From IMG/VR virus record IMGVR_UViG_3300049893_001204, positions 1-64,000 of that record: a stretch of 64,000 bases of DNA; one strand, written 5' to 3'. A program made the position numbers and the translations under genes. Every line of letters begins with the position of its first letter. Positions within the stretch are counted from its first letter, which is position 1. This document shows, one piece after another, positions 23,725 through 38,579 of this stretch. The notes below the pieces were generated by a model. That model saw only the letters and a list, made by a program, of their open reading frames with translations. It did not search any database and was not told where the DNA came from. The stretch is from a virus.

Positions 23725-26655
23725 TTAACGCTTGCTACGTTTACCTAAGCGACGTTGTTTTTGTGCGTGCGCCTGACTAAGCGCATGTGCTATGCGCTCA
23801 GAAACCCGTTGATCATCGACAGAAAATGTTTCTGTTGTTCCAGGTGGTTCTATTTTAGCGCGTGCGGCTTGGCGTGCAGCTAATTCAGGATCAATTTCAA
23901 GAGCACGTGAGCTTTGAATGGCGGCCTCAATGTCTCCCCCGATAGTTTCTCCAAAATCATAAGCAGCTACAGTTTGAGCAACTTCTTCAGCAGGAGAAAT
24001 TCTATCCATAGCCGACAAGCCACGTCGACCTTCTTGCATCATTCGACCAGTGGCACGAGCTTGTCCAGAGCCTCTTGCAGATAACACCGCCTGCCGTTGA
24101 ACGTCTAGTGGATCTGCACCTTCTTGATTTGCAATATCTAAAGACATCTGCAAAAAGTCAGTACGCCTCATTGGCCGACCAGATCTTTCGCGATAGTCAA
24201 GCATTGCAGCAGCAAGTCGCCTACCACCTATTTCTTCAGGAGAAATTTCTTTATTTATTGTGCGATATTTTACTTGATCACCAATGTACTCCATTATCTC
24301 TTTTTCTTCATTCCATTCATAAACAGGCTCAGAAGATGCAGAAACCAAAGGAACAGTACGTTGCCTTGAAGGTAAAGTACGAGAAGGACGTTCAGAAACA
24401 CTAGCACCCAAACCATAACGCTCACTCAATTGGTCTGTTGCACCAGGTTCAAGAACTCGTTGGCGAGTAGGTTCCGCAACTTGCGTAATAGTATTTGCAA
24501 TTGTAAGTGCTTTATTTAAATAAGGGTTAGTAGAAGGTCCCCCAAGAAATTGACCACCTTTTTTCTGGTGAAGTGTAAGAGCAAGATCAAGATCTGCCAG
24601 CCTATTATTAGTTAGTGATTCGTATGCAGTTTGTACAGCCTGTAGATATTCATAATTATTACGCTTACCTTGTTGTAGGGTAGGTTCAAACTGACCAACA
24701 TGACCAAGACCAAGCGTCCACGCCTTTGTTTCTTGTTCATCAATAATTTCAGGAACAGAATAACGAGTTTGACGCAGATATTTAGCACCTTCTTCTGTTT
24801 GTGCTTCTTGAATCACGCCTTTTTGTAAAAGAATGTCTTGCATTTGAGAAGACAAAGTTGACTCATCAGTAGCAGACAAACGCTGATAAGGATCAACAAA
24901 AGTTTTACGCCGTCTTCCCGCTGGATCCGACAAAGCAACTTCTAAGGGGCCGCGATAAACTTCAGTTGTTTGAAGTTGTGTATTGATTTGTCCAAGTTGT
25001 TTTTGATTAAACTGTTCATGCACTTGATTTACAAACGCAGCAGCTTCTTCTGGTGATTGCCAGTATTTTCCAGTAACCGGATGTTTATAAAAGAAATTAC
25101 CATACTCTTGATCAAGTCTTGTTTGTAAACGAGAATCACCAACTAAAGAAACTGGTTTTACTTTTGCGTAGATATTACCATTTGAAGATTGGCCTACAAA
25201 TCCTTGCTGAATATGTTCATCTACAGATAAAACAGGTAAAGAATCAACCTCACCAGAAGTGCCAGCACCTGAGCTGCCTCCAAATTCTTTTACGCCGCCA
25301 ATGGCGTATCCAACACCCTGTCCTTTATAACGTTCAGTACCAGAACCTGTGGCACCAGGGGAGGCAACAAATTTAGCTACTTCTTCCCTAGGAACAAAAG
25401 CAACAGCTTGCCCTACTTCTTCTCCAATGCCGGTTCCCGTCGAAGCATCTGGTGTACCACTTGTACCAATATCCGATTTACGGATTAAATTACCATATTC
25501 ATCAAGATACAAAGGTTCGTAATCGCTAACGTCAAATTTGCCGGAAGCTCTCCTTGATATATTTACAACTTCAGGTTTGCCTTCTTCTCCTCTTTGCACA
25601 GTAACCACATCTGCTTGCGAGGCAGGTTTTGCAGACCAACCAAAACCACGCGATTGAATAGCTTGATAATCTCCTGGCTCTGTAACCAAATAATTTTTAA
25701 TAGAGTCTTGATAATCATGAGCTAAAAGATTTTCACGTACGTGACGAGTAGCTGTAAAAACAGCATTTGAATCTTTGAAGGAAAGAACATTTCCTCTAGC
25801 ATCTTTTATTGCACTAGACATTAATTGTTGTGCTATTGAACGAGGCACAACGTTATCATCTCCAAGATGATTAAGAATCACCTCGGTACGAAGCATGCCA
25901 CGATCATCAAATAGTTTTTGATTCCAATCGCGTGTTATTGGTGCTGGTTGACGTTGTTGCCTGCGTTCTTTTGCTTCATTTAATGCTTGTTGTGATGATT
26001 TACCAGCTGTTTCCACTTGTGGCGTAGATAAATCATACCCACTTTGCTCCTCTCCGCTAAGGAGAGCATTTCTTACAGTATTTGCAAGTTCTTGATTTTG
26101 TTGTGCACGAACAGCTTTCCGTTCATTTAGCTTTGAAATATAAGAGGGGGATTCTGGATTACGTTCTTCAGAACTTTCAAGCATTTGCCGTGCTACACGA
26201 TCGGCAATAGAACCAGGTCGATAAGGAGTTGTAGGACGTGGAATACTCCTAAGTTCTTCGCGTTCCCTTAAATCACGTAAAAACGAAGTAAGATTATCTT
26301 GCGCTCCAACAGGAGGCTCTTTGCTTGGTTGAACAGGCGTTTCCTTGTTAAGATTAGCAATTTCACGAACTGCTTCTTCACTTGATTGACGCCCGCTGAC
26401 CAATTCTTCTGCTGCCGCTGGCTGGCGACGCAGCAAACTCCTGGCACCAAAGGCTCCAAGACCTGCAAGACCTAAGCCTGCCGCCGCAAGACCAAGGTTT
26501 TGGAGGAGATTTGACTCTTCGCGGGGGGCAACAAGCTGATTACGGCGAAATGCAAGGACTTCTGGGGCCATCTGAGCCCTTTCTTCCGGATCTTCTGGTA
26601 CCGGGACACCTGTGGCACGGCTGTAGGCGTAGAAATCAGCAGGTGCAAGTACCAT
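23725..26655 (-). CDS. Large hypothetical (internal virion-type) protein
   Basis: 976 aa, first gene of the late block, one N-proximal hydrophobic segment. Confidence 0.6.
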   Translation of the reverse strand: MVLAPADFYAYSRATGVPVPEDPEERAQMAPEVLAFRRNQLVAPREESNLLQNLGLAAAGLGLAGLGAFGARSLLRRQPAAAEELVSGRQSSEEAVREIANLNKETPVQPSKEPPVGAQDNLTSFLRDLREREELRSIPRPTTPYRPGSIADRVARQMLESSEERNPESPSYISKLNERKAVRAQQNQELANTVRNALLSGEEQSGYDLSTPQVETAGKSSQQALNEAKERRQQRQPAPITRDWNQKLFDDRGMLRTEVILNHLGDDNVVPRSIAQQLMSSAIKDARGNVLSFKDSNAVFTATRHVRENLLAHDYQDSIKNYLVTEPGDYQAIQSRGFGWSAKPASQADVVTVQRGEEGKPEVVNISRRASGKFDVSDYEPLYLDEYGNLIRKSDIGTSGTPDASTGTGIGEEVGQAVAFVPREEVAKFVASPGATGSGTERYKGQGVGYAIGGVKEFGGSSGAGTSGEVDSLPVLSVDEHIQQGFVGQSSNGNIYAKVKPVSLVGDSRLQTRLDQEYGNFFYKHPVTGKYWQSPEEAAAFVNQVHEQFNQKQLGQINTQLQTTEVYRGPLEVALSDPAGRRRKTFVDPYQRLSATDESTLSSQMQDILLQKGVIQEAQTEEGAKYLRQTRYSVPEIIDEQETKAWTLGLGHVGQFEPTLQQGKRNNYEYLQAVQTAYESLTNNRLADLDLALTLHQKKGGQFLGGPSTNPYLNKALTIANTITQVAEPTRQRVLEPGATDQLSERYGLGASVSERPSRTLPSRQRTVPLVSASSEPVYEWNEEKEIMEYIGDQVKYRTINKEISPEEIGGRRLAAAMLDYRERSGRPMRRTDFLQMSLDIANQEGADPLDVQRQAVLSARGSGQARATGRMMQEGRRGLSAMDRISPAEEVAQTVAAYDFGETIGGDIEAAIQSSRALEIDPELAARQAARAKIEPPGTTETFSVDDQRVSERIAHALSQAHAQKQRRLGKRSKR

Positions 26656-26738
26656 GGCTAGCCTTATCTGTTTAATATGACCAATATTTGTATTTTAGGA
26701 TGGTATAGACTTAAAAGTACGCAGGAATTAGAAAACAA

Positions 26739-26951
26739 ATGGACGCCGGTACCAGGCAGAAGCGAGTAGAAGGGCTAGAAGCTATTAAAAATAAGGCGAT
26801 GGAGATGGCAAAGTCCGGTAAAGACTCGCTAGAGGTACGTGATTTTGTTACAGAAGCAAGAAAAAGCCTTGCATACGAACTTCCTGATGAAGAATCCTTC
26901 CAAAAAGCGAAGCAAGCAACCCTTGCTTACCGCAGAAGCAAAGGTGAATAG
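26739..26951 (+). CDS. Hypothetical protein
   Basis: TAGACT -10 upstream and a terminator downstream. Confidence 0.6.
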   Translation: MDAGTRQKRVEGLEAIKNKAMEMAKSGKDSLEVRDFVTEARKSLAYELPDEESFQKAKQATLAYRRSKGE

Positions 26952-26976
26952 GGTATAAATACGATAAGTAATCAAC

Positions 26977-27004
26977 GCCGGGGATAACACCCCGGCTTTT
27001 TGTT
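26977..27004 (+). terminator. Intrinsic terminator
   Basis: GCCGGGG-ATAACA-CCCCGGC-TTTTTGTT. Confidence 0.8.
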
Positions 27005-27224
27005 GAAAAGTTTGGGTAAGTCTGTATAAAACACTACATAAATAAAGGTTTTTATTTGGGAAGGGGCTCTTATATACCCCAAATAGGGAAAAAATTTATC
27101 TGGCGCTTCTCCCAACACCCACGCGAAGTGAAATGTGGGAAGAAAAAAAGAAAGGGTGGGTGGGTAAGTAAGAGTAACGGGGGCTGCGCATCCGTACCAC
27201 GCAGAGTTCCATCGCGTTCAGACA

Positions 27225-27527
27225 ATGCAATTGACCAAGGAAGAGCAGAAGTCTTATGACTTCGATACTCGCTGCCAGATGGTGGCAAGTTACCTGCATG
27301 AAGGTAAGCCTGTATCCATGACTGCGAAGCAGCTAGCTTACTATGGCGTAACGCCGCACCAGGTTATAGCTGAGCTGGGTGGTTGGCTTCGCTCGGAAGA
27401 GCAAGAAGCCTGCTGGGAAGCTGAGCATTTATACGGCGGCAGCCGCCGCAAGCGAACATATGTTGTGTACTGCACCAAGGTGCAGGACAAGTATGTGTTC
27501 AAGGCTAAGGTAGCTGACTACGCTTGA
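27225..27527 (+). CDS. Early hypothetical protein
   Basis: 100 aa; its TGA begins element C0. Confidence 0.6.
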   Translation: MQLTKEEQKSYDFDTRCQMVASYLHEGKPVSMTAKQLAYYGVTPHQVIAELGGWLRSEEQEACWEAEHLYGGSRRKRTYVVYCTKVQDKYVFKAKVADYA

Positions 27528-27572
27528 AGGTTACCTCTACCCCTGGGCAACCAGGGGTTTATGTAGCCCTCA
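27525..27572 (+). repeat. Structured element family C, copy 0
   Basis: TGA-A-GGTTAC...CCCCTGG-GCAA-CCAGGGG...GTAGCC-C-TCA. Confidence 0.65.
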
Positions 27573-27696
27573 CCCGCGTTTATTCCCCCATTTCTGATAC
27601 GAATTCGTATCGCGCGCGATGGGTTTGGGTGTAAGGATGGTCTTCTGGAAGAAGACAGTCTATGCATTAGGTGCCAGATATTTTATCATAGGTACA

Positions 27697-27721
27697 TGTC
27701 AAGCTGGACGTTAAACGTAGC
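27697..27721 (+). repeat. Pseudoknot family B, degenerate copy
   Basis: TGTC-AAGCTG-GACG-TTAAAC-G-TAGC. Confidence 0.45.
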
Positions 27722-27746
27722 AGACAACTTGGCGGTCGTTCACGAT

Positions 27747-27780
27747 CTTGGCAGCTGCAATTCCGCAGTGTAAGTCCAAG
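27747..27780 (+). repeat. Structured element family A, copy 1
   Basis: CTTGG-CAG-CTGC-AATTCC-GCAG-TGTAAGT-CCAAG. Confidence 0.75.
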
Positions 27781-27797
27781 CTCACCAGGAGAACATT

Positions 27798-27995
27798 GTG
27801 GACTACACCGTTAACATCATCGAGCTTGACAACAACTACTTCCTTCAGGAAGTTTTTGCTGTCACTGAGTTCCAGTACGTGGAACAGGTGACTGCAGGGC
27901 CGTTTCAGGCTCGATGGCAAGCAGACGTGCAACGTTCTGTTGCTTACCCCGCTTATCGGGGATTAACAGATGAGCATTGCCGTCTGCAACACTGA
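27798..27995 (+). CDS. Early hypothetical protein
   Basis: AGGAG SD and GTG start; its TGA begins element D1. Confidence 0.55.
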   Translation: MDYTVNIIELDNNYFLQEVFAVTEFQYVEQVTAGPFQARWQADVQRSVAYPAYRGLTDEHCRLQH

Positions 27996-28069
27996 GCTGT
28001 AGTACTGCACATCTGTGCAGGGCCAGGTGCAACTCCTGGCCTCAGTTATTGCCTCCAGCGGAGATAGGC
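27991..28069 (+). repeat. tRNA-like element family D, copy 1
   Basis: ACTGA...CTGCAC-ATCT-GTGCAG-GGCCAGG-TGCAACT-CCTGGCC-TCAGT-TATT-GCCT..AGGC. Confidence 0.7.
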
Positions 28070-28092
28070 ACCGCACACACACGGAGAAACCC

Positions 28093-28338
28093 GTGAGCAA
28101 CCGCGACCAGCACCACCTTGCTCCGCTCAACGGAGACGGCAACCTCCCAACCAGGGAAGAAGCCGGCGAGTACGTCTTTAACCAGTGCAAGCACTGGATG
28201 GAAGAAGGTCACTCGCAGGTGTTAACCCGCGACCAAGGTCTTCAGATTGCCTGCTGGGCATTGAAGATCGCAGGAGCTCAAGAGCTTCTGACACACGTTA
28301 TTGCAGAGCTTGTTGAGCTTCCCGATAACTACTGCTGA
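28093..28338 (+). CDS. Early hypothetical protein
   Basis: GGAG SD and GTG at 28093. Confidence 0.55.
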   Translation: MSNRDQHHLAPLNGDGNLPTREEAGEYVFNQCKHWMEEGHSQVLTRDQGLQIACWALKIAGAQELLTHVIAELVELPDNYC

Positions 28339-28403
28339 TCCGTAACCAAGCGGGTGGGCAGGTGCAAACCCTGCCCCAGTTATTGCCACCCACTGAGGGT
28401 GGC
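28334..28403 (+). repeat. tRNA-like element family D, copy 2
   Basis: GCTG-A-TCCGT-AACCAA-GCGGG-T-GGGCAGG-TGCAAAC-CCTGCCC-CAGT-TATT-GCCACCC-ACTGA-GGGTGGC. Confidence 0.7.
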
Positions 28404-28416
28404 CTAGCTCAAGTCA

Positions 28417-28626
28417 ATGTCCATGATCAAGAACTGTTTCGTTGTTGTCTTCAACGGCAACGTTGTTGGTATGCATGCAACTGAGGAGGCAGCTGCTCAG
28501 CAAGTATTACAGTTAGCTGAGGAGTGGCAACTTCATGCCGACTGCGGAGCCGAAGTGCCAAAACCAGTATTGGTTGCAATGTCTTTCAATGAATGGATGC
28601 AGCACGAAAGTGTTGTTGTATTCTGA
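28417..28626 (+). CDS. Early hypothetical protein
   Basis: 69 aa. Confidence 0.55.
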   Translation: MSMIKNCFVVVFNGNVVGMHATEEAAAQQVLQLAEEWQLHADCGAEVPKPVLVAMSFNEWMQHESVVVF

Positions 28627-28681
28627 TTTCTGCATCAAGCCCTGAGTAATCAGGGTTTCTTGCAGGACTCAACATCCTGTA
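28624..28681 (+). repeat. Structured element family C, copy 1
   Basis: TGA-T-TTCTGCA-TCAA-GCCCTGA-GTAA-TCAGGGT-TTCT-TGCAGGA-C-TCA-ACA-TCCTGTA. Confidence 0.85.
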
Positions 28682-28702
28682 TCCCACACCTCAAGTCAGT
28701 TC

Positions 28703-28888
28703 ATGACTGCACTCAACATTCGTAAGAACATTGGCGGTCTGCTCCATGCTACTGCATCAGCAGTGGAGCAGATCAAGGTACCTACCAAGCAGCAGCTTAA
28801 TGAGAAGGTAGATGAGTACCGCATTCGTGCGGCTGCACTCATCATGCCTAATGATGCTGCATTTGTTATTCCTGGAGCTAAGAAGTGA
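28703..28888 (+). CDS. Early hypothetical protein
   Basis: 61 aa. Confidence 0.55.
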   Translation: MTALNIRKNIGGLLHATASAVEQIKVPTKQQLNEKVDEYRIRAAALIMPNDAAFVIPGAKK

Positions 28889-29091
28889 AGAACGATTTTA
28901 CTGGAGCAGTAGTTGCCATTGCTATTGGCAACGGACTAGGCTTTCTTCTGTCCATTGCTGGACAGAAGATGATCAACAAGCATCAGATAGCTGTATGTCC
29001 GAGCAAACCTAATCATTCACTTGTGATGGTTAGGAGTGTAGTTGGTGACAGCTACTACTGCATTGCTGATAAGTACTTAGACAAGCACTGA
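28885..29091 (+). CDS. Early small membrane protein
   Basis: N-terminal hydrophobic helix, GTGA coupling. Confidence 0.55.
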   Translation: MKNDFTGAVVAIAIGNGLGFLLSIAGQKMINKHQIAVCPSKPNHSLVMVRSVVGDSYYCIADKYLDKH

Positions 29092-29146
29092 CGTTTGCAC
29101 ATTCCCTTGTGGTAACACAAGGGTTTCTGCAGACCTCACGTCTGCA
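29089..29146 (+). repeat. Structured element family C, copy 2
   Basis: TGA-C-GTTTGCA-CATT-CCCTTGTG-GTAA-CACAAGGG-TTTC-TGCAGAC-C-TCA-C-GTCTGCA. Confidence 0.85.
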
Positions 29147-29173
29147 CCAATTCAACTCAACCCAACTAGGACT

Positions 29174-29425
29174 ATGTCTCCTGCAAGTGTTGAATATCTG
29201 TTGACCCAAGATGCCAGGTTGCTGGCACGCAGGGATTCAACGCCTGCCCATCCTGCTATCGATGCAGAGATTGAGGACTGCCGTCAGGCAGCACTTGATC
29301 TTTACTTCAAGTGGCAAGATGGGACAGCACAGTTCCAGGAACTTACACCCTTTGTGGTGATCTTGGAGCGCAAGGTTGAATTAAACCGTGCACTCATCAA
29401 GTGGTTGAAGAACCACGAGGATTGA
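29174..29425 (+). CDS. Early hypothetical protein
   Basis: 83 aa. Confidence 0.6.
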   Translation: MSPASVEYLLTQDARLLARRDSTPAHPAIDAEIEDCRQAALDLYFKWQDGTAQFQELTPFVVILERKVELNRALIKWLKNHED

Positions 29426-29491
29426 TTCCTGTACTTAACCCTACCTATTCCATGTGATAGGTGGGTTTTCTACAGGACTTAACATCCTGTA
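29423..29491 (+). repeat. Structured element family C, copy 3
   Basis: TGA-T-TCCTGTA-CTTA-ACCCTACCTAT..ATAGGTGGGT-TTTC-TACAGGA-C-TTA-ACA-TCCTGTA. Confidence 0.85.
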
Positions 29492-29517
29492 CACCACAGC
29501 ACAACTCAGCACTAAAC

Positions 29518-29916
29518 ATGACTGAAGCCATCAAGAAGTATGCAGACTTCCAGCAAGTCGTCTTTCACGGACGCATTGCATACATGGAAGCTGTCAACTA
29601 TGACGGCAAAGAATTTCTTGCTGTTACGTTGATGCACACGTTGTCTGAGACAACGGATCTACGGATTCGTTTTACGAATGGCAACGGTCTTTTAACTGCC
29701 TACCGCAACGGTAATCTTGTGGTTGGTCAGGAGCTTACCATCAGTGGTAACATCAAGGGCATCCGTGCTTTCTACATGAAAGAGGATGAGCTTGTGCCAC
29801 TGAAGCATCCTGAGCTACAGGTCCGTTGCATGGGTTATGTCTTTGGTTCCAAGCCAGAGCAGAAACCTGAGGCAGTAGCAACAGCTGTGCCAACGCTGGA
29901 AGAAATTCCATTCTGA
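29518..29916 (+). CDS. SSB-like OB-fold protein with an EEIPF tail
   Basis: VVFHGRI...LVVGQELTISGNI...LEEIPF. Confidence 0.6.
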   Translation: MTEAIKKYADFQQVVFHGRIAYMEAVNYDGKEFLAVTLMHTLSETTDLRIRFTNGNGLLTAYRNGNLVVGQELTISGNIKGIRAFYMKEDELVPLKHPELQVRCMGYVFGSKPEQKPEAVATAVPTLEEIPF

Positions 29917-29980
29917 TTTCTGCACTAAACCCTGCCCATCGTTAGATGGGTGGGTTTTCTGCAGGACTCAACATCCTGCA
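29914..29980 (+). repeat. Structured element family C, copy 4
   Basis: TGA-T-TTCTGCA-CTAA-ACCCTGCCCATC-GTTA-GATGGGTGGGT-TTTC-TGCAGGA-C-TCA-ACA-TCCTGCA. Confidence 0.85.
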
Positions 29981-30005
29981 AACAGTCTACCCAACATCTC
30001 AACAC

Positions 30006-30269
30006 ATGCGATTATCAATTGATCAACATGATATCGACGAAGCTTGTGCTGAGTTCGGTATTTCTCAAAGCGACTATTACATAACGTGCACATCCAGTGC
30101 AATATATATGCACTGGGTAGCAACACCAGAGCAAATCAAGAAGTATTTTGAAACTGGACATTGTTGTTTATGCATAGATATAGGAGGTGAATGGATAATA
30201 TCTGATGAGGTAGAAGATTACAGAATGCCTAATCGTTTAACTGCATGCCGTTACATTCTTGATGCTTGA
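30006..30269 (+). CDS. Early hypothetical protein
   Basis: ATG after an A/C-rich leader. Confidence 0.55.
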   Translation: MRLSIDQHDIDEACAEFGISQSDYYITCTSSAIYMHWVATPEQIKKYFETGHCCLCIDIGGEWIISDEVEDYRMPNRLTACRYILDA

Positions 30270-30270
30270 T

Positions 30271-30471
30271 ATGAAACACATAGTTTCACTAGGCAACAAC
30301 CGCTATGTACACCTCGATTCTTATGGTGAGTCTTCTAAGACTCGAGCCGTAAGTCAGGTGATGGTTGTTGCCTTTGCACTTGTCATTGCCTGCATTACAG
30401 TGCCTGCACTGGTAGGCATTGACATTACCAACATCAACTCAACACAGAACCATGACAACATTAAGCGTTAA
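30271..30471 (+). CDS. Small membrane protein
   Basis: One TM segment. Confidence 0.5.
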   Translation: MKHIVSLGNNRYVHLDSYGESSKTRAVSQVMVVAFALVIACITVPALVGIDITNINSTQNHDNIKR

Positions 30472-30802
30472 CACTGCACTAATTGAAGAACGTCTGCAGC
30501 AGCTTATTACTGCACTCATCAAACAGTTTGATGAATACAGCAGACGAAACTATGGACATCCAAGTGATACTCATTACTTGTCCTTTGAGATTGTCAAAGG
30601 TACCAAGTATTACAAGCTCATTATGAGGCAAGGTACTGGTACATCGGTGCATGCATTTATCAGTCGTCAGACTGGTGCCATGTACAAACCAGCTAGCTGG
30701 AAAGCACCTGCCAAGCACGTCCGGTACAATCTGCTGGATGACACATCATTTGCTGAGTGTCTACGCAGAGCTGACTGGGCTGGTGGGTATCTATACCTAT
30801 GA
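30452..30802 (+). CDS. Conserved cyanophage hypothetical protein
   Basis: GTKYYKL...SVHAFI...TGAMYKPASWKAPAKHVRYNL. Confidence 0.7.
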   Translation: MTTLSVNTALIEERLQQLITALIKQFDEYSRRNYGHPSDTHYLSFEIVKGTKYYKLIMRQGTGTSVHAFISRQTGAMYKPASWKAPAKHVRYNLLDDTSFAECLRRADWAGGYLYL

Positions 30803-30851
30803 GCTTTATCAGTATTCCAGGTAACTAACGTTTACCAGGAATCCAACTAAC

Positions 30852-30891
30852 TGCTGGGCATCCATGGATATACATGGTGTAAGTCCCAGCA
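30852..30891 (+). repeat. Structured element family A, copy 2
   Basis: TGCTGGG-CAT-CCATG-GATATA-CATGG-TGTAAGT-CCCAGCA. Confidence 0.85.
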
Positions 30892-30907
30892 AATCACAAC
30901 TCCTCCT

Positions 30908-31285
30908 ATGAAGGGACGCATTTCAATCCTCAAAGAAGATCGCATCTGGCAGCTGAGAACACAAGGTTATTGCTATGACACAATCGCACAGATTGTCAAT
31001 TGCAAACCTGGTTCAGTTCCAGCTGCACTTAAACGTACAAGACAACGTCCACCACTGGCACAAGATCCAGTAAAACGTGGACGTGTACGTGGCTTTCTAT
31101 CTGATGATCAGATCTCTGACATCAGAAAACGCAAAGCACTAGGTGAAACATTACATTCCATTGCAGGTGACTATCACATTGAGATATCATCTGTGTGGAA
31201 TATTGTAACCTACAACTCTTACAAGGAACCATCAGGTGATTCTGGTTACCCATTCAAGTTTGGTAACCGCCTGATGCATGGTTAA
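30908..31285 (+). CDS. Tandem HTH DNA-binding protein
   Basis: LRTQGYCYDTIAQIVNC and LSDDQISDIR...GETLHSIAGDYHI. Confidence 0.6.
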   Translation: MKGRISILKEDRIWQLRTQGYCYDTIAQIVNCKPGSVPAALKRTRQRPPLAQDPVKRGRVRGFLSDDQISDIRKRKALGETLHSIAGDYHIEISSVWNIVTYNSYKEPSGDSGYPFKFGNRLMHG

Positions 31286-31286
31286 T

Positions 31287-31318
31287 ACCTGGGCATCCTT
31301 ATGGTGTAAGTCCCAGGT
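31287..31318 (+). repeat. Structured element family A, copy 3
   Basis: ACCTGGG-CAT-CC-TTAT-GG-TGTAAGT-CCCAGGT. Confidence 0.85.
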
Positions 31319-31346
31319 TGTTTACAACTCACACAAGTTTACTGCA

Positions 31347-31478
31347 ATGGACTCAAATCAATTTGAAAATGACATTCCTTCTGATGCATTAGATGCATTA
31401 GCTGATCTTGCCTATGAGCAAGAAGAAGCAATGAGGGAAGAACTTAACCAACCGGAGGTTTATGATGACCAAACATGA
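31347..31478 (+). CDS. Small acidic protein
   Basis: MDSNQFEND... Confidence 0.5.
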   Translation: MDSNQFENDIPSDALDALADLAYEQEEAMREELNQPEVYDDQT

Positions 31479-31565
31479 CTACACCTTTGAGCAGGCATGG
31501 GATGATGGCGACATCATCATCATTCTGCTCACAATCATTTCACTTATCATCACGGAAATTGGATC

Positions 31566-31913
31566 ATGTCTAGTGCCAAGCACTCAACAGCAACAGCACG
31601 TAAGTGGATTGCTGTCTACAACACATTCAAAGAGTGTGTTGGCAGAGAACCAACCACCATCTGTGTCTACGAATGCAGCACTGCATATGGAGGACCACAA
31701 GAAGGAGGTTGGTACTACGAAACCGGCTGGCCGCTCAAGACGATCTGCGTCTTCTCCAAAAAGCAAGCCATCCGTGAAGCCATCCGAGCGGAAGCGGAAA
31801 CCGAAGAGCAACTTGGTAATCGCAAAGACTATCTCGGATGGAACGCCTGGTGTGTTAACTTCGACGTTGAGTACGCCAAGCCGTACCCAGAAGAACGTCC
31901 TTACTATTGCTGA
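31566..31913 (+). CDS. Conserved phage hypothetical protein
   Basis: YGGPQEGGWYY...YPEERPYYC. Confidence 0.65.
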   Translation: MSSAKHSTATARKWIAVYNTFKECVGREPTTICVYECSTAYGGPQEGGWYYETGWPLKTICVFSKKQAIREAIRAEAETEEQLGNRKDYLGWNAWCVNFDVEYAKPYPEERPYYC

Positions 31914-31918
31914 TACCA

Positions 31919-32152
31919 ATGCAAACAATTGGACAGAATCTCACAATCAACCAGCGTAATCTATATCTGTATTACTTGAATCATAAGAAGAAGAACAAGA
32001 ATGCCGTATGCTTTGTTCCAAAGATGCCAATGCAATCAACCCGCATGCAAGACTACTTGCGTGCGATAGAAGCTTTAGAAGAGAAGAAGCTTATAGCTGT
32101 GGACAGAAGCTCAGATAATTACACTGGCTGGATCATTCGAGATCCAAAATAA
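31919..32152 (+). CDS. Putative winged-helix protein
   Basis: LTINQRNLY...AIEALEEKKLIAV. Confidence 0.45.
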   Translation: MQTIGQNLTINQRNLYLYYLNHKKKNKNAVCFVPKMPMQSTRMQDYLRAIEALEEKKLIAVDRSSDNYTGWIIRDPK

Positions 32153-32220
32153 TTACCAGGTAATGCCAGATAGATACTGGCCTACCTGCTACACAACCCA
32201 CTGCTATTTAACACAACACC

Positions 32221-32502
32221 ATGGCATTATCCCTTGAGCAACAACTGATTGGTGATCTGATGGGATACCAGCCCATGACACCAGAAGAAGCTGCAAAACC
32301 AGCGGACACATCACTGTGCAACCGTAAGGTTGAGATGCGTGATGGCTGGCCTCACATCATGTGGCGTAAGGAATGGACTCCAGTTCCAACGATGGAAGAG
32401 TTGGAGGAATGGACGTTTGATTCCGTATGTTTGACACCAGATGAAGATGAGGTGGAACCAGATGATGTACACTCGTGGCTTAGTATTCTTGGTTTAATCT
32501 AA
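32221..32502 (+). CDS. Hypothetical protein
   Basis: DSVCLTPD..VEPD..SWLSILGLI, a pattern seen in phage proteins. Confidence 0.6.
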   Translation: MALSLEQQLIGDLMGYQPMTPEEAAKPADTSLCNRKVEMRDGWPHIMWRKEWTPVPTMEELEEWTFDSVCLTPDEDEVEPDDVHSWLSILGLI

Positions 32503-32882
32503 TGCCTTATAAAGATCCGGACAAAAAGCGTGAGTATGATCGCATACGTCGTCAAACTCACAAAGACCAGATCGCCGGTAATAAACGTAAATGGTCAAAT
32601 GAAAATCGTGACAAGGTACGTTTAAGAAGTCAACGGCGACGAAAAGAGGATCCAGATTATTTTAAAAGATATCATGCAAATCAAGACCCTATTAAACGCA
32701 AAGCTAGGCACATGATTACAAATCGTGTGCGATCTGGCAAAATGCCAAGTTGTTCAGTATTTACTTGTGCAGATTGCAACAAGAAAGCTGAACATTACCA
32801 TCATGAATCGTATGAACAATGGTGGGCTGTTGTTGCTTTGTGTCAAGAGTGTCATTACCGTAGACACCAAAAACCAATTTGA
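32502..32882 (+). CDS. HNH-like endonuclease
   Basis: CADC...HYHH..Y...LCQECH. Confidence 0.7.
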   Translation: MPYKDPDKKREYDRIRRQTHKDQIAGNKRKWSNENRDKVRLRSQRRRKEDPDYFKRYHANQDPIKRKARHMITNRVRSGKMPSCSVFTCADCNKKAEHYHHESYEQWWAVVALCQECHYRRHQKPI

Positions 32883-32949
32883 TATTAGCAACAACTACGT
32901 GAGCCAGATCATCCGCATAGCTGGCTGCGTATACTGGGCATGATCTAAC

Positions 32950-33000
32950 ACTTAGGCATTCACATTATCACACTAGTGTTATGTGATGTAAGTCCTAAGT
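32950..33000 (+). repeat. Structured element family A, copy 4
   Basis: ACTTAGG-CAT-TCACAT...ATGTGA-TGTAAGT-CCTAAGT, compensatory changes in both stems. Confidence 0.85.
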
Positions 33001-33027
33001 ACACAGCTAACACAACACAACAACACC

Positions 33028-33384
33028 ATGGGACGTAGCAAGAAATCTGATGGGCCCTCACCAGATTATCCCCAAGGTCTACACAATGTCACATTTAAAG
33101 ACATTAGCGAAGATGATTGGTGGTTAATCATTCATCTGTTTGAAGGACGCATTGAATACTTTCAACGGAGGTTGAATGACATCATGCAGACTGGAGACCC
33201 TGACTTGATGGATAACACAACTCAGTGGTACAGAGAATCAATTGCACGTCTGACCAAGAGACTAACTGAGTTTGAAGATCAGATTAGTCCTGTTTACTTC
33301 AGACGTAAACGTGCAGAGAAAGCTGCGCGATGCAAGCAGTACAACCTACCTATTGACAAGAACGATCTAACAACTAGAACTTGA
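33028..33384 (+). CDS. Early hypothetical protein
   Basis: 118 aa. Confidence 0.6.
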   Translation: MGRSKKSDGPSPDYPQGLHNVTFKDISEDDWWLIIHLFEGRIEYFQRRLNDIMQTGDPDLMDNTTQWYRESIARLTKRLTEFEDQISPVYFRRKRAEKAARCKQYNLPIDKNDLTTRT

Positions 33385-33388
33385 TAAG

Positions 33389-33418
33389 CCTGGGCATCCG
33401 TAAGGTGTAAGTCCCAGG
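33389..33418 (+). repeat. Structured element family A, copy 5
   Basis: CCTGGG-CAT-CC-GTAA-GG-TGTAAGT-CCCAGG. Confidence 0.85.
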
Positions 33419-33449
33419 GTTTACAATCTATTCACAACATAACAACACC

Positions 33450-33776
33450 ATGCCGCAAGATCAACTGCATTTTGAACCAGAGGTATTCCGTTCTTATAAC
33501 GGTAATGAGGTTGTGCTTCAGATGAATGAAGCCAAACGCATTGACCTAATCATCAAAGAACTGCAGGCTATCTATGCAAGAGAGGAGAAACGTAATCACA
33601 TGTACCTGCATTTTCCATATGAAGCACCAGAGCTTTTGTTGGAAGCCATTGAGCTGCTTGAGAAAGCAACTGAGTGGGGTGAACCATCAGATGGTTATCT
33701 GACAGGTGAACCACCACTGACTGCAGATGAAATGCACACAGCAGCATGGAAGCAGCACCAGGAGTTGCACTCATAA
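33450..33776 (+). CDS. Early hypothetical protein
   Basis: 108 aa. Confidence 0.6.
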   Translation: MPQDQLHFEPEVFRSYNGNEVVLQMNEAKRIDLIIKELQAIYAREEKRNHMYLHFPYEAPELLLEAIELLEKATEWGEPSDGYLTGEPPLTADEMHTAAWKQHQELHS

Positions 33777-33955
33777 GTTGAGTAGTATTACTCACAGCAT
33801 GAGTAGAGGGTGTACCCCCAGACCCCCAGAGGGTACCAGGGGGGCACCCTTATTTCTATAAGGTAAACCTATGTATCTAACCATTACACATTAGATACAA
33901 CCCTTGACTACCCTGATAGACTACCCTCGTTCACTCATCTAACTTCACTTCACTT

Positions 33956-34159
33956 ATGTCTGATCAATTACGTATTCCTGATTCAATAGATAACCAACGA
34001 CTTGCTGCTATGCGTTTAGTTGCTCACCTTAAAGAGCAAGCAGATAAGTCAGGTGTTGGATTCATTGGGGGCTTTATTGCCCCCAATGGAGAAAAGTTTG
34101 TCATGTCCAATATGGATGATGAGGACATGCAGATGTTACTTCCTGATGAACTTCAGTGA
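33956..34159 (+). CDS. Hypothetical protein
   Basis: 67 aa, TAGACT upstream. Confidence 0.6.
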   Translation: MSDQLRIPDSIDNQRLAAMRLVAHLKEQADKSGVGFIGGFIAPNGEKFVMSNMDDEDMQMLLPDELQ

Positions 34160-34464
34160 CAACCATGACAACTACACACAAACTTATTGAACAAGTCATC
34201 AGCTCTTTCGAATTTGAAAAAGTGTTAATCACTATGCAAGCATTGGATTGGAAATGGAGAGATCCAAATACTAAAGAGATGCATGTACCTACTATTGCTC
34301 GCATGAAAGCAATGGCAACAAACCTGTTGTTCTCATCGATAGAAAACACATGCTGTGGCTCTGGTGGTTTTGAAGCTACATACACAGAACCAACAGAGCA
34401 TGAGCCAGAGTCATTTGAACTCAAGTTTATTGTTACCGAAATGAACACAAATTCCAATGCCTAA
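34156..34464 (+). CDS. Hypothetical protein
   Basis: FEFEKV..TM.ALDWKW...GSGGFEA. Confidence 0.6.
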   Translation: MTTMTTTHKLIEQVISSFEFEKVLITMQALDWKWRDPNTKEMHVPTIARMKAMATNLLFSSIENTCCGSGGFEATYTEPTEHEPESFELKFIVTEMNTNSNA

Positions 34465-34654
34465 GAAATCATCAATCAATTTCGACAAGACAATCCTGGG
34501 ATTTAACATTACAGAACATGGTGTTAAGTCTTATACCAAGTCGATCAAGCTTGGTCCATTCCAGGTAACATTGAATGCACGTGACTCAGGTGTACGTGCG
34601 TCAGTAGCATTGCCTGGTACAGGATTGTCTAAACGAAACATTAAATTATTCTAA
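34457..34654 (+). CDS. DUF4236-like protein
   Basis: KSIKLGPFQVTLN...SVALPGTGLS. Confidence 0.55.
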   Translation: MPKKSSINFDKTILGFNITEHGVKSYTKSIKLGPFQVTLNARDSGVRASVALPGTGLSKRNIKLF

Positions 34655-34690
34655 AGATCTGGGCATCCTTACGGTGTAAGTCCCAGGTCT
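34655..34690 (+). repeat. Structured element family A, copy 6
   Basis: AGATCTGGG-CAT-CC-TTAC-GG-TGTAAGT-CCCAGGTCT. Confidence 0.85.
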
Positions 34691-34712
34691 GTTCACCTAC
34701 CAATTCAATTCC

Positions 34713-34898
34713 ATGGATCAAATCACTTTGTTTGACAGAGTTAATCTTGCTAACTGCGCAATGCGCAGGGCAGAGGAGCATCTCTCAGATGCTGAACGCT
34801 TTACTGCGGAGTTTCAGACGGTACGTGCTTGGACTAAATACCGTTGCAACATCTACAAGTACGACAATCGTATTGTTGCTTACACGGAGTCAAACTGA
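34713..34898 (+). CDS. Hypothetical protein
   Basis: 61 aa, TGATG coupling. Confidence 0.55.
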   Translation: MDQITLFDRVNLANCAMRRAEEHLSDAERFTAEFQTVRAWTKYRCNIYKYDNRIVAYTESN

Positions 34899-35161
34899 TG
34901 GCATGCACTGTCCTTGCAATTGAAGAGACTACGATCAATGGATCTGATGTCACAGTTACAGCAATGGTTGAAGACATGCGTCTTCTATACCGTGCAACAT
35001 ATACAGATCCTGAGGAATGGGCTCCTGCATTATGCAGAGCTTCTTTCCAGCTGGCTGATGACGAACAGATTCCTACTGATGAAGATGGCTTCTGCCATTT
35101 CTTGTATCAGTTGGATCTTGAATGGCAACTGGTTGACACATCTGATTGGAGTTTAGACTAA
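34898..35161 (+). CDS. Acidic hypothetical protein
   Basis: ATYTDPEEWAPALC. Confidence 0.6.
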   Translation: MACTVLAIEETTINGSDVTVTAMVEDMRLLYRATYTDPEEWAPALCRASFQLADDEQIPTDEDGFCHFLYQLDLEWQLVDTSDWSLD

Positions 35162-35379
35162 TGCTTGGCTTTTCAATAGAATTCAAACGCTGGTACATTG
35201 TACTGCGTGGCCCCAGGGGTAGGGTTTACCTTGCCACTGGGTTTGCTAAGCAGTTGCCATTTTATGTATCACCAACACAAGCTGCAGCATTCGATGCTGC
35301 AGTAGATGATACACATTGTGCAATACTTGCAGATGAATGGCGTGAAGACGATAATGAAGATGAAGAAATAGAGAACTGA
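35161..35379 (+). CDS. Hypothetical protein
   Basis: TAATG coupling. Confidence 0.55.
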   Translation: MLGFSIEFKRWYIVLRGPRGRVYLATGFAKQLPFYVSPTQAAAFDAAVDDTHCAILADEWREDDNEDEEIEN

Positions 35380-35383
35380 TCAC

Positions 35384-35414
35384 ACGTCCTAGGTCATGAC
35401 GTTAAACTGACCTA
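35384..35414 (+). repeat. Pseudoknot family B, copy 1
   Basis: ACGTC-C-TAGGTCA-T-GACGT-TAAAC-TGACCTA. Confidence 0.85.
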
Positions 35415-35440
35415 CACTACAAACTCAATCCACACCAACC

Positions 35441-37189
35441 ATGCAATTCCGTCTGCCTGACAATCTGCAAACTGAGCTGCTTGCTTATGACCCAAGCCTT
35501 AAGACATTGGCTAAGCAACAGAAAGCTGCTGCTTCAGCAACTAAGAAGACAACACATCCACTTGGTAACCCATATGATTTAATCCCAGTGGATATTGTAT
35601 CTAAAGATACACTTGCTACTGCAATTGAACGTATTAATCGCATGGCTGCTAAGTTTCGTTATTATGTGTTTAATAGGTTTGAAACAATTGATAACCAACC
35701 TATACAGATTACTTATGCCATTATCTATTACTACGCACAATGTTGGTATGCAGCATGGCTTCCACCTGCTGACCAACGTGATAAGTATGTATATGGTTAT
35801 CGATATGCATTCAAGAATACTGAGGCTGCACGCAAAGCTATGTCGCATGCAGTAAAAGGTAAGATAGATCAACATCAAGAAATTAAGTATGGTCGCTCAA
35901 CCTTTTACATTTATGGTGAGACGGTTACCTTAGAGCAGATCAAGACAACACCATCAAACGAACTGCAATACGGATGGAACCTAGCTGGTGTGCCAACGTA
36001 TTACCAAAAGTCTGGTGAGATGCGACGCGCTTGTATCAATGAATTCTACAAGTCATTGTCATTGTTTATACCTACGTGGCAAGATAGCCGTGAAATCTTT
36101 GAGCGTGTTCGTAATCAACATTGCATTGCATCATTGTTGATTAGTTATTCAGACCTTAACATTTCCTATTGGGATACAGTTGACAAGAATACTTGGGTAC
36201 CATCACATGAATCATTGCTTAACTTGATTGACTACAATGTAATCTATGCAGAAAACCTGGGTTATAGCAGAGGCTATGAGTATAAAAGATTACACAAGAT
36301 CAAGCACATTATTAATACACCATTCTTTAAGAAATGGATAGAAGAACAATGTGCATTAGTTATGACGCGTATTAACGATAGTTCAATTACAGATTCAAAG
36401 CTAGTTGCTGCGCCATGGAAAACAATCATTGCTTTGTTGACTGCAATATATGGCATTCATAGTGTATGGGATGACTGTCCTATTGATTACTATCAATCAC
36501 ATATGTCTGCATTGATTGCTAGTGGTAATTGTTTTTCATACGCAAGTAACCTAGTTCAGAAGTGGTTGAAAGATAACATGCCTGTTGCATCATTCTTTAA
36601 GATAGTTGAGAAGTCATACGTTAAAGAATTAGCAGGCAATATGTATTTTGATAGAGATATTCAACATCACACGTATCGTTTGCATGAATGGCGTGACACT
36701 ATGAACATGCTAACTAATATACTTAACAAGCAAGATACATTTGATCCGCCTAGCCGCTGGCGTATTGAAGAGTTCCATGACCATGTGCAATCAACTGCAT
36801 GGAAACTAAACAATGAGAACCAATCATTACCACAAGATTTGTTTCCAACACCAATTAAGATTTCACTTGGTGAATCAACATGGACATTCTTCCAGCCCAT
36901 TGATACACATCAACTTGCAGCTTGGGGCCAGGCCGTACGTAACTGCGTTGGCTCTGCATCAGGCTATGCAGAAGGTGTACGCAAGAAGAAACATTTCATT
37001 GTACTGTGCATGATTGATAACAAGCCTGTGTTTACCATCCAGCTAGATGTCAACAATGGCGTCATGAATGTTAATCAAATTAAGGGGGTATCCAACACAT
37101 CACTTAAACCTGAACAACAAGAATTGTATACAACTGCATTCAGTCAGGCATTGAAAGCCAGGGATGCTGAGCTAGCATCTAAGAGCTGA
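35441..37189 (+). CDS. PcfJ-like domain protein
   Basis: C-terminal EFHD...L..WGQAVRNCVG...Y...FTIQL...QIKG. Confidence 0.7.
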   Translation: MQFRLPDNLQTELLAYDPSLKTLAKQQKAAASATKKTTHPLGNPYDLIPVDIVSKDTLATAIERINRMAAKFRYYVFNRFETIDNQPIQITYAIIYYYAQCWYAAWLPPADQRDKYVYGYRYAFKNTEAARKAMSHAVKGKIDQHQEIKYGRSTFYIYGETVTLEQIKTTPSNELQYGWNLAGVPTYYQKSGEMRRACINEFYKSLSLFIPTWQDSREIFERVRNQHCIASLLISYSDLNISYWDTVDKNTWVPSHESLLNLIDYNVIYAENLGYSRGYEYKRLHKIKHIINTPFFKKWIEEQCALVMTRINDSSITDSKLVAAPWKTIIALLTAIYGIHSVWDDCPIDYYQSHMSALIASGNCFSYASNLVQKWLKDNMPVASFFKIVEKSYVKELAGNMYFDRDIQHHTYRLHEWRDTMNMLTNILNKQDTFDPPSRWRIEEFHDHVQSTAWKLNNENQSLPQDLFPTPIKISLGESTWTFFQPIDTHQLAAWGQAVRNCVGSASGYAEGVRKKKHFIVLCMIDNKPVFTIQLDVNNGVMNVNQIKGVSNTSLKPEQQELYTTAFSQALKARDAELASKS

Positions 37190-37237
37190 AGCCACAGCAA
37201 GGCCATCGTATGCTTGGCATAGGTGGCCTTTTCTTTC

Positions 37238-37477
37238 ATGCCTGACTACACTGATGAACAGCTGCTTGCCATGGCAATGGCAAACATTGGTGAATACATT
37301 CATGATCACTCACCACACTATGTACTGATTGAAGATCCTCGTAATGAGGATGACTATGATACATGGGATTATGGTACTGAGCCATTACCTCATGATCACA
37401 CTTGGCATTCAACTGCAATCACAGTTGATGTAAGTCCAAGTGATGCCGGCGTAGCCCAATCGGAAGAAGGCAAGTGA
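37238..37477 (+). CDS. Small acidic hypothetical protein (3' end overlaps tRNA-Leu)
   Basis: MPDYTDEQLLAMAM... Confidence 0.5.
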   Translation: MPDYTDEQLLAMAMANIGEYIHDHSPHYVLIEDPRNEDDYDTWDYGTEPLPHDHTWHSTAITVDVSPSDAGVAQSEEGK

Positions 37478-37519
37478 CTTAAAATCACTCAAGTACGAGT
37501 TCGAATCTCGTCGCCGGCA
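37445..37519 (+). tRNA. tRNA-Leu(UAA), short variable loop
   Basis: GCCGGCG/CGCCGGC acceptor, AGTGA-CTTAAAA-TCACT anticodon arm, ACGAG-TTCGAAT-CTCGT T arm, A73. Confidence 0.9.
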
Positions 37520-37531
37520 GTCTTTCTTTTT

Positions 37532-38038
37532 ATGTTTATGAGCCAAGCTAAAGCTGCTTTAATACAAGCTTATGAAAAAGGTTATCGAGTTAAAGATAAC
37601 GTTGTTTATGGGATTGTTAAAAAGCAACCATTAAAACTCAGTTGCTCTAAGTCTGGCTATCTATTTTTTAATGTAAAGTTTGGTTCAAAAACAGTTAAAG
37701 TATTTCTGCATCGTTTAGTTGCATATGAAAAGTATCAAGACAAATTGCTTGAGCCGGGTATCTTGGTTCGACATTTAAACGGCAATAGCAAAGATAATTC
37801 ATTTGGAAATATTTGCATTGGAACTCAAACTGAAAACATGTTAGATAGAAGTCCGGAAGAACGTTTGAATCATGCTATTAAGGCATCTAGTTCTATACGT
37901 AAATTTACAAATGAGAAAGTAAATCAAATTAAACTTGACCATTCAAATGGTTTAGGTTATAAAGCTTTAATGGAAAAGTATGGCATTACTTCTAAAGGAA
38001 CCTTGCATTATATTCTTACTCATGAATATGTAACGTAA
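37532..38038 (+). CDS. HNH homing endonuclease
   Basis: SGY...VFLHRLVAY...VRHLNGNSKDN..N...GT..EN; AT-rich, next to a tRNA. Confidence 0.85.
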   Translation: MFMSQAKAALIQAYEKGYRVKDNVVYGIVKKQPLKLSCSKSGYLFFNVKFGSKTVKVFLHRLVAYEKYQDKLLEPGILVRHLNGNSKDNSFGNICIGTQTENMLDRSPEERLNHAIKASSSIRKFTNEKVNQIKLDHSNGLGYKALMEKYGITSKGTLHYILTHEYVT

Positions 38039-38041
38039 ACA

Positions 38042-38069
38042 CTGGGCATCCTTATGGTGTAAGTCCCAG
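38042..38069 (+). repeat. Structured element family A, copy 7
   Basis: CTGGG-CAT-CC-TTAT-GG-TGTAAGT-CCCAG. Confidence 0.85.
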
Positions 38070-38098
38070 CCACCAACCCACACAGCAACTTCAACATC

Positions 38099-38461
38099 AT
38101 GTCAATTTTTGCTTGCTTTAAGTACATCATTCCTGAGTTCCATGCCTTCAGTGATGAAGACAAGCGCTACAACGTAGGTGCGACATGGACTGCACAAGAT
38201 GGACTTAAGGATTACCACAACATTGAGTTGCGGTACGTCCACAACTCAGAACGTCTTGCGCTCCAAGGTGATCCACAACCTGATGGCAGCTGGCGTTATG
38301 TAGAACCCAATGGCAATGTCCATACCATCTCAGCTGATCGAGCTAAACACTTTATGGAGCAGACACAGTTGCATGCCACCATCATGGTTGAGATGCTAGA
38401 CAAGCTTAAGGAATCTGGTACAGGGCAGCCGCCCATTGACACTAGTGTCCAGCCTGCTTAA
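38099..38461 (+). CDS. Hypothetical protein
   Basis: 120 aa. Confidence 0.6.
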   Translation: MSIFACFKYIIPEFHAFSDEDKRYNVGATWTAQDGLKDYHNIELRYVHNSERLALQGDPQPDGSWRYVEPNGNVHTISADRAKHFMEQTQLHATIMVEMLDKLKESGTGQPPIDTSVQPA

Positions 38462-38482
38462 GCTACACTTGAACTGCTGACA

Positions 38483-38514
38483 GATCCCCGGCGCAAGCTG
38501 GGGTCTTTTCTTTT
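38483..38514 (+). terminator. Intrinsic terminator
   Basis: CCCCGGC-GCAA-GCTGGGG-TCTTTTCTTTT. Confidence 0.75.
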
Positions 38515-38579
38515 GATGGACACATTGCTAATCATTTTTATTATCTGTGGTATTTCATTTATTGTTGTTTCTGTAGTTT

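Follow-up and report, generated by a model that had tools for sequence, protein, structure and literature searches.

The window analysed here comprises the first 64 kb (64,000 nucleotides) of IMG/VR virus record IMGVR_UViG_3300049893_001204, a 77.7 kb virus genome that is ~98% complete. Its small early genes are separated by a hairpin element, termed Family C, which recurs five times between 27525 and 29980 and is the subject of this analysis. The only cultured relative found by DNA is Synechococcus phage S-EIV1 (KJ410740), and solely from this kinship do we infer a Synechococcus-type host for the window phage. The structural genes occupy the minus strand and extend to 26655. From 27225 onwards, the plus strand carries small early genes and then replication genes, and this block encodes a PcfJ-like protein, a family A DNA polymerase, a primase-helicase, and an SSB. 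A canonical terminator at 26977-26996 (GCCGGGG..CCCCGGC, then TTTTTGTTGA) ends the minus-strand structural block. Directly after it, TTGAAA-N16-TATAAA is found at 27003-27030, with a preceding TG, and may act as a host-type promoter driving early transcription of the plus-strand operon holding Family C. All copies of the element sit between open reading frames (ORFs) of the same strand, and a scan of the plus strand between the copies gave no promoter-like sites.

The phage yielded no gene for a T7-like RNA polymerase, a sigma factor, or RNase III, the PF00940 search being uninformative (its control gave no match), while the Ribonucleas_3_3 profile did match its Synechococcus elongatus control. 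Genes for RNase III, RNase E, and RNase J occur in all sequenced cyanobacteria (PMC10989914), which possess a 5'-sensing RNase E together with the 5'-exonuclease RNase J (PMC10989914, PMC10939160).

The five copies in the early gene block

According to the initial annotation, made from the DNA letters alone, five copies begin at the TGA of the upstream ORF, and all five ORFs indeed end exactly at that codon. As also proposed there, a long hairpin in which the UGA pairs with a downstream UCA or UUA is the minimum free energy (MFE) structure given by RNAfold for each of the five copies. From the base upwards, its layers consist of the UGA/UCA or UUA pairs, a 1x1 mismatch, a 6-7 bp stem formed by strands called X and Y, an internal loop, and a GC-rich upper stem. 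A second copy of X, called X', had been noted in four of the copies and is present in these, 3-7 nt past the UCA. The features are as follows, with scores of the covariance model (CM) described below given in bits.

27525..27572, plus strand: copy 0 long hairpin; TGA 27525-27527, stop of ORF 27225..27527; X 27529-27534; upper stem 27539-27558 with GCAA loop 27547-27550; Y 27563-27568; TCA 27570-27572; MFE -32.3 kcal/mol, z -5.3, CM 59 bits; without X' and with no gene directly downstream
28624..28671, plus strand: copy 1 long hairpin; TGA 28624-28626, stop of ORF 28417..28626; X 28628-28634; upper stem 28637-28658 with GUAA loop 28646-28649; Y 28661-28667; TCA 28669-28671; z -3.5, 66.5 bits
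28675..28681, plus strand: copy 1 X' (TCCTGTA); Y/X' loop CTCAACA; next ATG 28703, 36 nt past Y
29089..29138, plus strand: copy 2 long hairpin; TGA 29089-29091, stop of ORF 28885..29091; X 29093-29099 (GTTTGCA); upper stem 29104-29123 with GUAA loop 29112-29115; Y 29128-29134 (TGCAGAC); TCA 29136-29138; z -3.6, 56.1 bits
29140..29146, plus strand: copy 2 X' (GTCTGCA), covarying with its own Y (GAC/GTC replacing GGA/TCC); next ATG 29174, 40 nt past Y
29423..29481, plus strand: copy 3 long hairpin; TGA 29423-29425, stop of ORF 29174..29425, paired to TTA 29479-29481 (G.U); X 29427-29433 (TCCTGTA); upper stem 29437-29467; Y 29471-29477 (TACAGGA); z -4.5
29485..29491, plus strand: copy 3 X' (TCCTGTA); next ATG 29518 (SSB-like gene), 41 nt past Y
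29914..29970, plus strand: copy 4 long hairpin; TGA 29914-29916, stop of the SSB-like ORF (29461..29916); X 29918-29924; upper stem 29927-29957 with GUUA loop 29941-29944; Y 29960-29966; TCA 29968-29970; z -5.3, 60.9 bits
29974..29980, plus strand: copy 4 X' (TCCTGCA); likely next start ATG 30006, 40 nt past Y

The fold z-scores of the copies range from -3.5 to -5.3 against dinucleotide shuffles, none of 200 shuffles being as stable. GNRA caps occur in three copies, as described initially (GCAA, GUAA, and GUAA). Internal loops are likewise present, yet their claimed sizes of 4x4 or 5x5 do not hold: they are predicted as 2x2 to 4x4, because flanking A-U pairs lengthen the upper stem. When X is blocked in folding, the upper hairpin forms together with a Y/X' hairpin, and a 23-nt motif running from Y to X' has three matches versus 0.00 expected. 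The lack of X' in copy 27525 is usual for the GGT/GCC subfamily to which it belongs. Downstream of copy 4, the ATG at 29946 chosen by the ORF finder falls within the upper stem, and the in-frame ATG at 30006, which matches the family's spacing of 38-42 nt from Y, is the likelier start.

Conservation and covariation in related phages

A covariance model built on 13 copies detects the five copies in the phage's own genome and no others there, and one to three in each of four relatives. Applied to 46 IMG/VR loci around homologues of the SSB-like gene, the model gives 129 sense-strand matches, and together with a degenerate pattern scan it adds 131 further matches (strand echoes included) on contigs mostly of 30-85 kb. 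The total amounts to 252 non-redundant matches and, once strand echoes and duplicates are dropped, 160 distinct copies in 64 related loci, with every primary match of the model on the sense (coding) strand. From one copy in S-EIV1, the number rises to at least six per 7-kb locus in other relatives. Copy 3 is the positional orthologue of the single S-EIV1 copy (L004:6784-6852; KJ410740 ~42652-42720), and counterparts of copies 29089 and 29914 are missing in S-EIV1, where unrelated sequence is found.

The gene at 29518-29916 encodes 132 aa with the C-terminus ..EIPF, which we take to resemble the C-terminal tail of SSB. It has Family C copies on its flanks in 43/46 relatives, lying just upstream in 43 of the 46 loci and just downstream in 43. 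This SSB-like protein differs from the product of 44074-44889, which is 271 aa long and has a Pfam SSB domain. The SSB-like ORF is annotated in S-EIV1 only in truncated form (record 42195-42386), the open frame being 146 codons long (L004:6872-7309).

The initial annotation gave Y two mutually exclusive partners, and among the relatives both X/Y and Y/X' covary. In the long hairpin, 95.1% of cells are paired compared with 83.9% in shuffles, and cells with double changes number 149 compared with 41.8 +/- 5.1, a count reached in 0/500 shuffles. Sliding the partner by 1-3 columns lowers long-hairpin pairing to 33-59%. As variable loop lengths keep X' out of register, Y/X' covariation was scored outside the MAFFT alignment by a purpose-written script with chimeric controls, in which the Y of one copy is combined with the downstream segment taken from another whose Y tail differs. 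In 142/160 copies, Y and X' form an uninterrupted helix of 6 bp or more that closes a loop of 4-8 nt, and a strong Y/X' helix occurs in 129/160 copies compared with 248/3200 chimeras. The Y tail varies jointly with the heads of X and X' (GGA/TCC, GAC/GTC, GAG/CTC, GGG/CCC, GTC/GAC, and GGC/GCC), and this co-change of all three strands can be seen directly among the orthologous copies upstream of the SSB-like gene. Two exclusive helices on one shared strand, each with covariation, are the mark of an alternative-hairpin switch, and both are found here.

Selection acts at the RNA level, since the X/Y stem holds 111 G.U versus 12 A.C oppositions and since stable apical loops are frequent, with UUCG in 21 copies, UACG in 10, and GNRA in ~13, closed by C-G. 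Among the partners of Y guanines, wobbles are more frequent in X (93/394) than in X' (41/394). The long fold is favoured over the two-hairpin fold by a median of ~4.4 kcal/mol, and the Y/X' hairpin alone is worth ~ -8.3 kcal/mol. On these folding models, the system looks tuned for bistability.

The anatomy of the element is constrained in its lower part and free in its upper part. The TGA of the model is the real stop codon in 108/160 copies; in another 25 the stop precedes it by 1-5 nt, and in ~17% of copies by 7-40 nt. Most stem bases are TGA/TCA (112 of 160), followed by TGA/TTA (15) and TAA/TTA (5); the change from UGA/UCA to UAA/UUA in the last five keeps stop identity and pairing alike. 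The mismatch after the TGA is pyrimidine-pyrimidine in 94/103 copies, and the internal loop is symmetric (1-4 nt) and all-pyrimidine in 102/103. As these symmetric pyrimidine mismatches are the only interruptions, the helix is quasi-continuous. It is made up of 3 + 7 + at least 7 bp and reaches 17-22 bp in 74/103 copies and 23-44 bp in the other 29, longer helices arising where palindromes are inserted at the apex. The core of the lower stem is near-invariant, with X4 U-A in 160/160 copies, X5 G-C in 144, and X6 C-G in 149, while the upper stem varies freely in sequence and in length (7-34 bp). The upper stem begins 12-15 nt past the U of UGA, and Y begins 1-4 nt past the upper stem. The downstream start codon follows at a median of 38 nt after Y (mostly 35-42 nt) and ~20 nt after X'. 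The leader contains 6% G and a Shine-Dalgarno-like motif in 15/147 copies. Over the 40 nt after X', no position exceeds 0.3 bit apart from the first (0.8 bit, T 57%), and TANNNT has no preferred position there.

Apex insertions include a perfect 16-bp palindrome, GATACGAATTCGTATC, which occurs once in the window, at 27596-27611 just downstream of copy 27525. In other genomes, it stands at the apex of the upper stem in 15/160 copies (for example L047:3380-3464, L011:3960-4045, and L019:3876-3966), and compensated variants such as GATACGGATCCGTATC and a second type of insert, GTAC..GTAC, are also seen. The palindrome could be mobile and hosted by a tolerant hairpin apex, or it could be an operator-like site in the DNA.

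By sequence comparison, the S-EIV1-like cyanophages share Family C as a conserved and bistable mRNA element located between cistrons. A search of Rfam at E up to 1 over 26000-40000 returned no family other than tRNA and the sub-threshold sRNA BjrC68 (38457-38515, outside the element). No paper on the element was found in the full-text literature on S-EIV1 hairpins, cyanophage RNase III, and intercistronic processing.

Processing, termination, or switching

Substrates of RNase III from Escherichia coli are typically two helical turns long, and internal loops, bulges, and mismatches can confine the cut to one strand, leaving protective 3' hairpins (PMC1540722, PMC3867540). The early precursor of T7, ~7000 nt long, contains five RNase III signals (PMC3867540). 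As the T7 RefSeq record carries no annotation of RNase III sites, the intercistronic regions known to contain them were folded instead. We take the sites to be placed in these regions, and their exact coordinates were not used as evidence. Like Family C, the folded T7 regions show two tiers between small early cistrons, the lower a stem of ~10 bp that contains a mismatch and the upper a GC-rich stem of 9-13 bp, with an internal loop between them. A tetraloop caps three of the five, with 3- and 5-nt loops in the other two. They also share with Family C the A-rich 5' and U-rich 3' shoulders and, for genes 0.4 and 0.7, a UGA stop at or beside the base of the lower stem. The two-turn, mismatch-broken, quasi-continuous hairpin described for RNase III signals (PMC1540722) is thus found in Family C. 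However, the likeness is architectural only, with no sequence homology and no Rfam match; the internal loops of Family C are symmetric and all-pyrimidine, unlike those of T7, and the T7 sites lack the spare partner X' for their 3' arm. In addition, the putative host of Family C is a cyanobacterium with the 5'-exonuclease RNase J, unlike that of T7. On these folding models, Family C looks like, but is not homologous to, a T7-type RNase III site.

Other known systems resemble the element in part. In the PeSL cassettes of T4-like phages, a stem-loop is followed by a sigma-70-like -35/-10 promoter and by a Shine-Dalgarno sequence (PMC2839356, PMC4122927). Like Family C, they are repeated modules between small early ORFs, with a stem-loop that directly follows the upstream gene and a leader of fixed length before the next start codon, and their copy number and presence differ between close relatives. 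Unlike them, Family C has neither this promoter nor this Shine-Dalgarno sequence in the ~20 nt from X' to ATG, and has a second, competing hairpin instead. Attenuators and riboswitch platforms share with Family C a strand with two exclusive, covarying partners and folds close in energy. Family C differs in having no aptamer and no leader peptide and in having its U-run ahead of the shared strand; as the U-run precedes Y, the choice of fold cannot decide termination. Plastid intercistronic elements offer a setting of cyanobacterial lineage in which polycistronic RNA is cut and its ends are protected, yet protection there is mostly due to bound helical-repeat proteins, and no common sequence or fold is seen (PMC2230500, PMC2758277).

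Tentatively, and with somewhat less than an even chance of being right, we favour reading Family C as an intercistronic cut-and-refold processing and stability signal. The early operon would probably be transcribed as one unit by the host polymerase, as no phage polymerase was found and the plus strand between the copies has no promoter-like site. During transcription, the long hairpin would form as the default fold and present a two-turn helix of the RNase III type. A host endonuclease specific for double strands, most likely RNase III, would nick it on the 3' side, past the upper stem and before Y. This would leave the upper hairpin at the end of the upstream cistron, as a barrier to 3' exonucleases, and Y at the start of the downstream cistron, re-paired to X' as a 5'-terminal hairpin of 6-7 bp. 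As Y starts 1-4 nt after the upper stem, a cut in the 3' side of the internal loop would indeed leave it 5'-terminal and free for X'. Products of RNase III carry a 5' monophosphate, and since cyanobacteria possess the 5'-sensing RNase E as well as RNase J, such a hairpin would be protective by hiding the new 5' end from both. The leader of ~20 nt, G-poor and unstructured, would stay open for the ribosome. T7 in E. coli may be less in need of such 5' protection.

Several observations weigh against this reading. An upper stem of 7-34 bp rules out a ruler measured from the loop, the UUU(U)C that follows a GC-rich stem in most copies could terminate some transcripts, and the CUGCA/UGCAG core is conserved beyond structural need, which could mean a sequence-specific protein. 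Moreover, the TGA is retained in copies where it is not the stop codon, for which the processing model offers no account, and copy 27525 and its subfamily do without X'. Overall, the structural premises of the initial annotation are borne out by the comparative data, and its interpretation as a whole is, at the level of sequence, partly supported.

The alternatives are not all exclusive of processing or of each other. The upper hairpin and UUU(U)C could act as a leaky intrinsic terminator or attenuator that halts some host RNA polymerases and gives a 5'-to-3' gradient of expression, X/Y and X' being accessories that, e.g., insulate the terminator hairpin or stabilise read-through RNA. A U-run of 3-4 nt directly after the upper stem in 82/103 copies, the consensus 3' shoulder TTTTCTG, the passing of a lenient terminator scan by two of the five window copies, and an A-rich 5' shoulder paired to the U-run, which resembles strong or bidirectional terminators, all speak for this. 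Nevertheless, it appears unlikely. The U-run is at most 2 nt in 20/103 copies, which carry C-G in place of the A-U pairs at the stem base (pair composition there: AU 42, CG 23, and GU 13) and keep X/Y/X' (L022:3388-3445 is one with C-G replacing the U-run), so a conserved role as a pure terminator is improbable. The phage's canonical terminators have longer U-rich tails (26977-26996 followed by TTTTTGTTGA, and 38486-38503 followed by TCTTTTCTTT). If the five copies were true terminators, spaced within 2.5 kb and with no promoter-like site in between, the replication genes further downstream would be starved of transcription. Finally, X/Y and X', the most conserved parts, cannot affect termination, because Y is transcribed after the U-run.

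It could also be speculated that the ribosome itself acts on the hairpin, without obligatory cleavage: terminating at UGA, with a footprint of ~12-13 nt downstream that corresponds exactly to UGA + N + X, it would free Y for X'. The fold would thus report translation of the upstream cistron and alter either downstream initiation or decay, the latter for instance if the pyrimidine linker became accessible to RNase E. The placement of the stop at the first stem triplet in 108/160 copies, or within 5 nt upstream in 25 more, fits this idea, as do the five copies in which UAA/UUA preserves both stop and pairing. The distance of 12-15 nt from the U of UGA to the upper stem gives a geometry that fits as well as for cut-and-refold, only ~4.4 kcal/mol separates the two folds, and the richer G.U wobbling of X (93 vs 41 of 394) means that X' would win once X is displaced. 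On the other hand, in the ~17% of copies with the stop 7-40 nt upstream, a terminating ribosome would miss X, and the G-poor leader has no complement to X', leaving no evident output at the downstream ribosome site. T7 RNase III sites also carry stop codons at the stem base without such a switch, so the placement may be mere compact packing. The chance of a switch without obligatory cleavage is therefore rated as low, and the same low rating is given to a ligand-free ribosome-actuated switch in which the footprint on UGA and X flips the fold and licenses cleavage or sets the lifetime of the downstream cistron. If true, each early message would be cut or stabilised only once its upstream neighbour is translated, and the switch could be a general phage device linking translation to mRNA punctuation.

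Least probable in our view, with only a slight chance, is that the CUGCA/UGCAG stem serves as a site for a sequence-specific protein (a repressor, an endonuclease of the Cas6/Csy4 kind, or an antiterminator) and/or that the element is a PeSL-like cassette for early-gene shuffling. The near-invariant core of the lower stem (X4 160/160, X5 144, X6 149) below a free upper stem would suit a protein, but no candidate protein was identified, and the core covariation UAC/GUA and UGU/ACA indicates that pairing, not sequence, is preserved when the core changes. A cassette would agree with the copy number that varies among relatives (one in S-EIV1, at least six per 7-kb locus elsewhere), with the unrelated S-EIV1 sequence at the sites of copies 29089 and 29914, and with a TGA kept even where it is not the stop, as for a cassette bringing its own; however, the sigma-70 promoter that defines PeSL is missing. 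For any role at the DNA level, the bias of G.U over A.C and the UNCG/GNRA loops favour selection on RNA instead.

Other readings were considered and rejected. A DNA palindrome or cruciform for a dimeric DNA-binding protein is out, given a half-site spacing from 16 to >100 nt, 111 G.U versus 12 A.C, and the UNCG/GNRA loops. A host sigma-70 or PeSL promoter would lack space, and no -10/-35 is conserved. A promoter for a phage RNA polymerase, or an N4-like hairpin promoter, is opposed by the lack of a detected polymerase (the PF00940 search being uninformative) and by Y/X' loops of 4-8 nt, not 3. SECIS-type read-through fails as the next in-frame stop lies a median of 18 codons past the UGA (quartiles 3 and 35), just 14/97 downstream ORFs are in frame and reachable, and the upper stem is not conserved. 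A small self-cleaving ribozyme is unlikely, the internal loops being tiny, pyrimidine-only, and without sequence conservation, with no Rfam match.

Neighbouring elements and significance

Other structured elements accompany Family C in the plus-strand block. A second family of intergenic hairpins, Family A, has six copies in 30860-38071 (e.g., 31284-31318, 33385-33419, 34654-34688, and 38037-38071), built on a CCTGGG/CCCAGG stem inside which the motifs CATCC and GGTGTAAGT are conserved, and the family is also conserved in S-EIV1 (L004:8040-8065, 8718-8780). A related hairpin, GGGGCTGCGCATCC..CGCAG, stands ahead of the first early gene at ~27180-27210. Another structured intergenic element, GGGCAGGTGCAAACCCTGCCCCAGTTATTGCC.., earlier labelled a mini-tRNA mimic, occurs in two copies (27990-28075 and 28335-28405). 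It is shared with S-EIV1 and has 81% identity over 68 nt with podovirus S-SBP1 and a Mediterranean fosmid phage, matches that point to conservation across otherwise unrelated cyanophages. A tRNA gene (Rfam RF00005, 64.8 bits) lies at 37445-37519 within the early/replication block.

The S-EIV1-like cyanophages form a widespread, almost unstudied lineage, apparently without an RNA polymerase of their own. The ~250 natural variants of Family C and their three-way covariation provide a direct handle on how an early polycistronic message is partitioned and stabilised in a host with RNase III, RNase E, and RNase J. If the cut-and-refold reading is true, the RNase III paradigm of T7 would gain a built-in 5' cap hairpin, and the element would offer compact, self-insulating parts for splitting operons in cyanobacterial synthetic biology.

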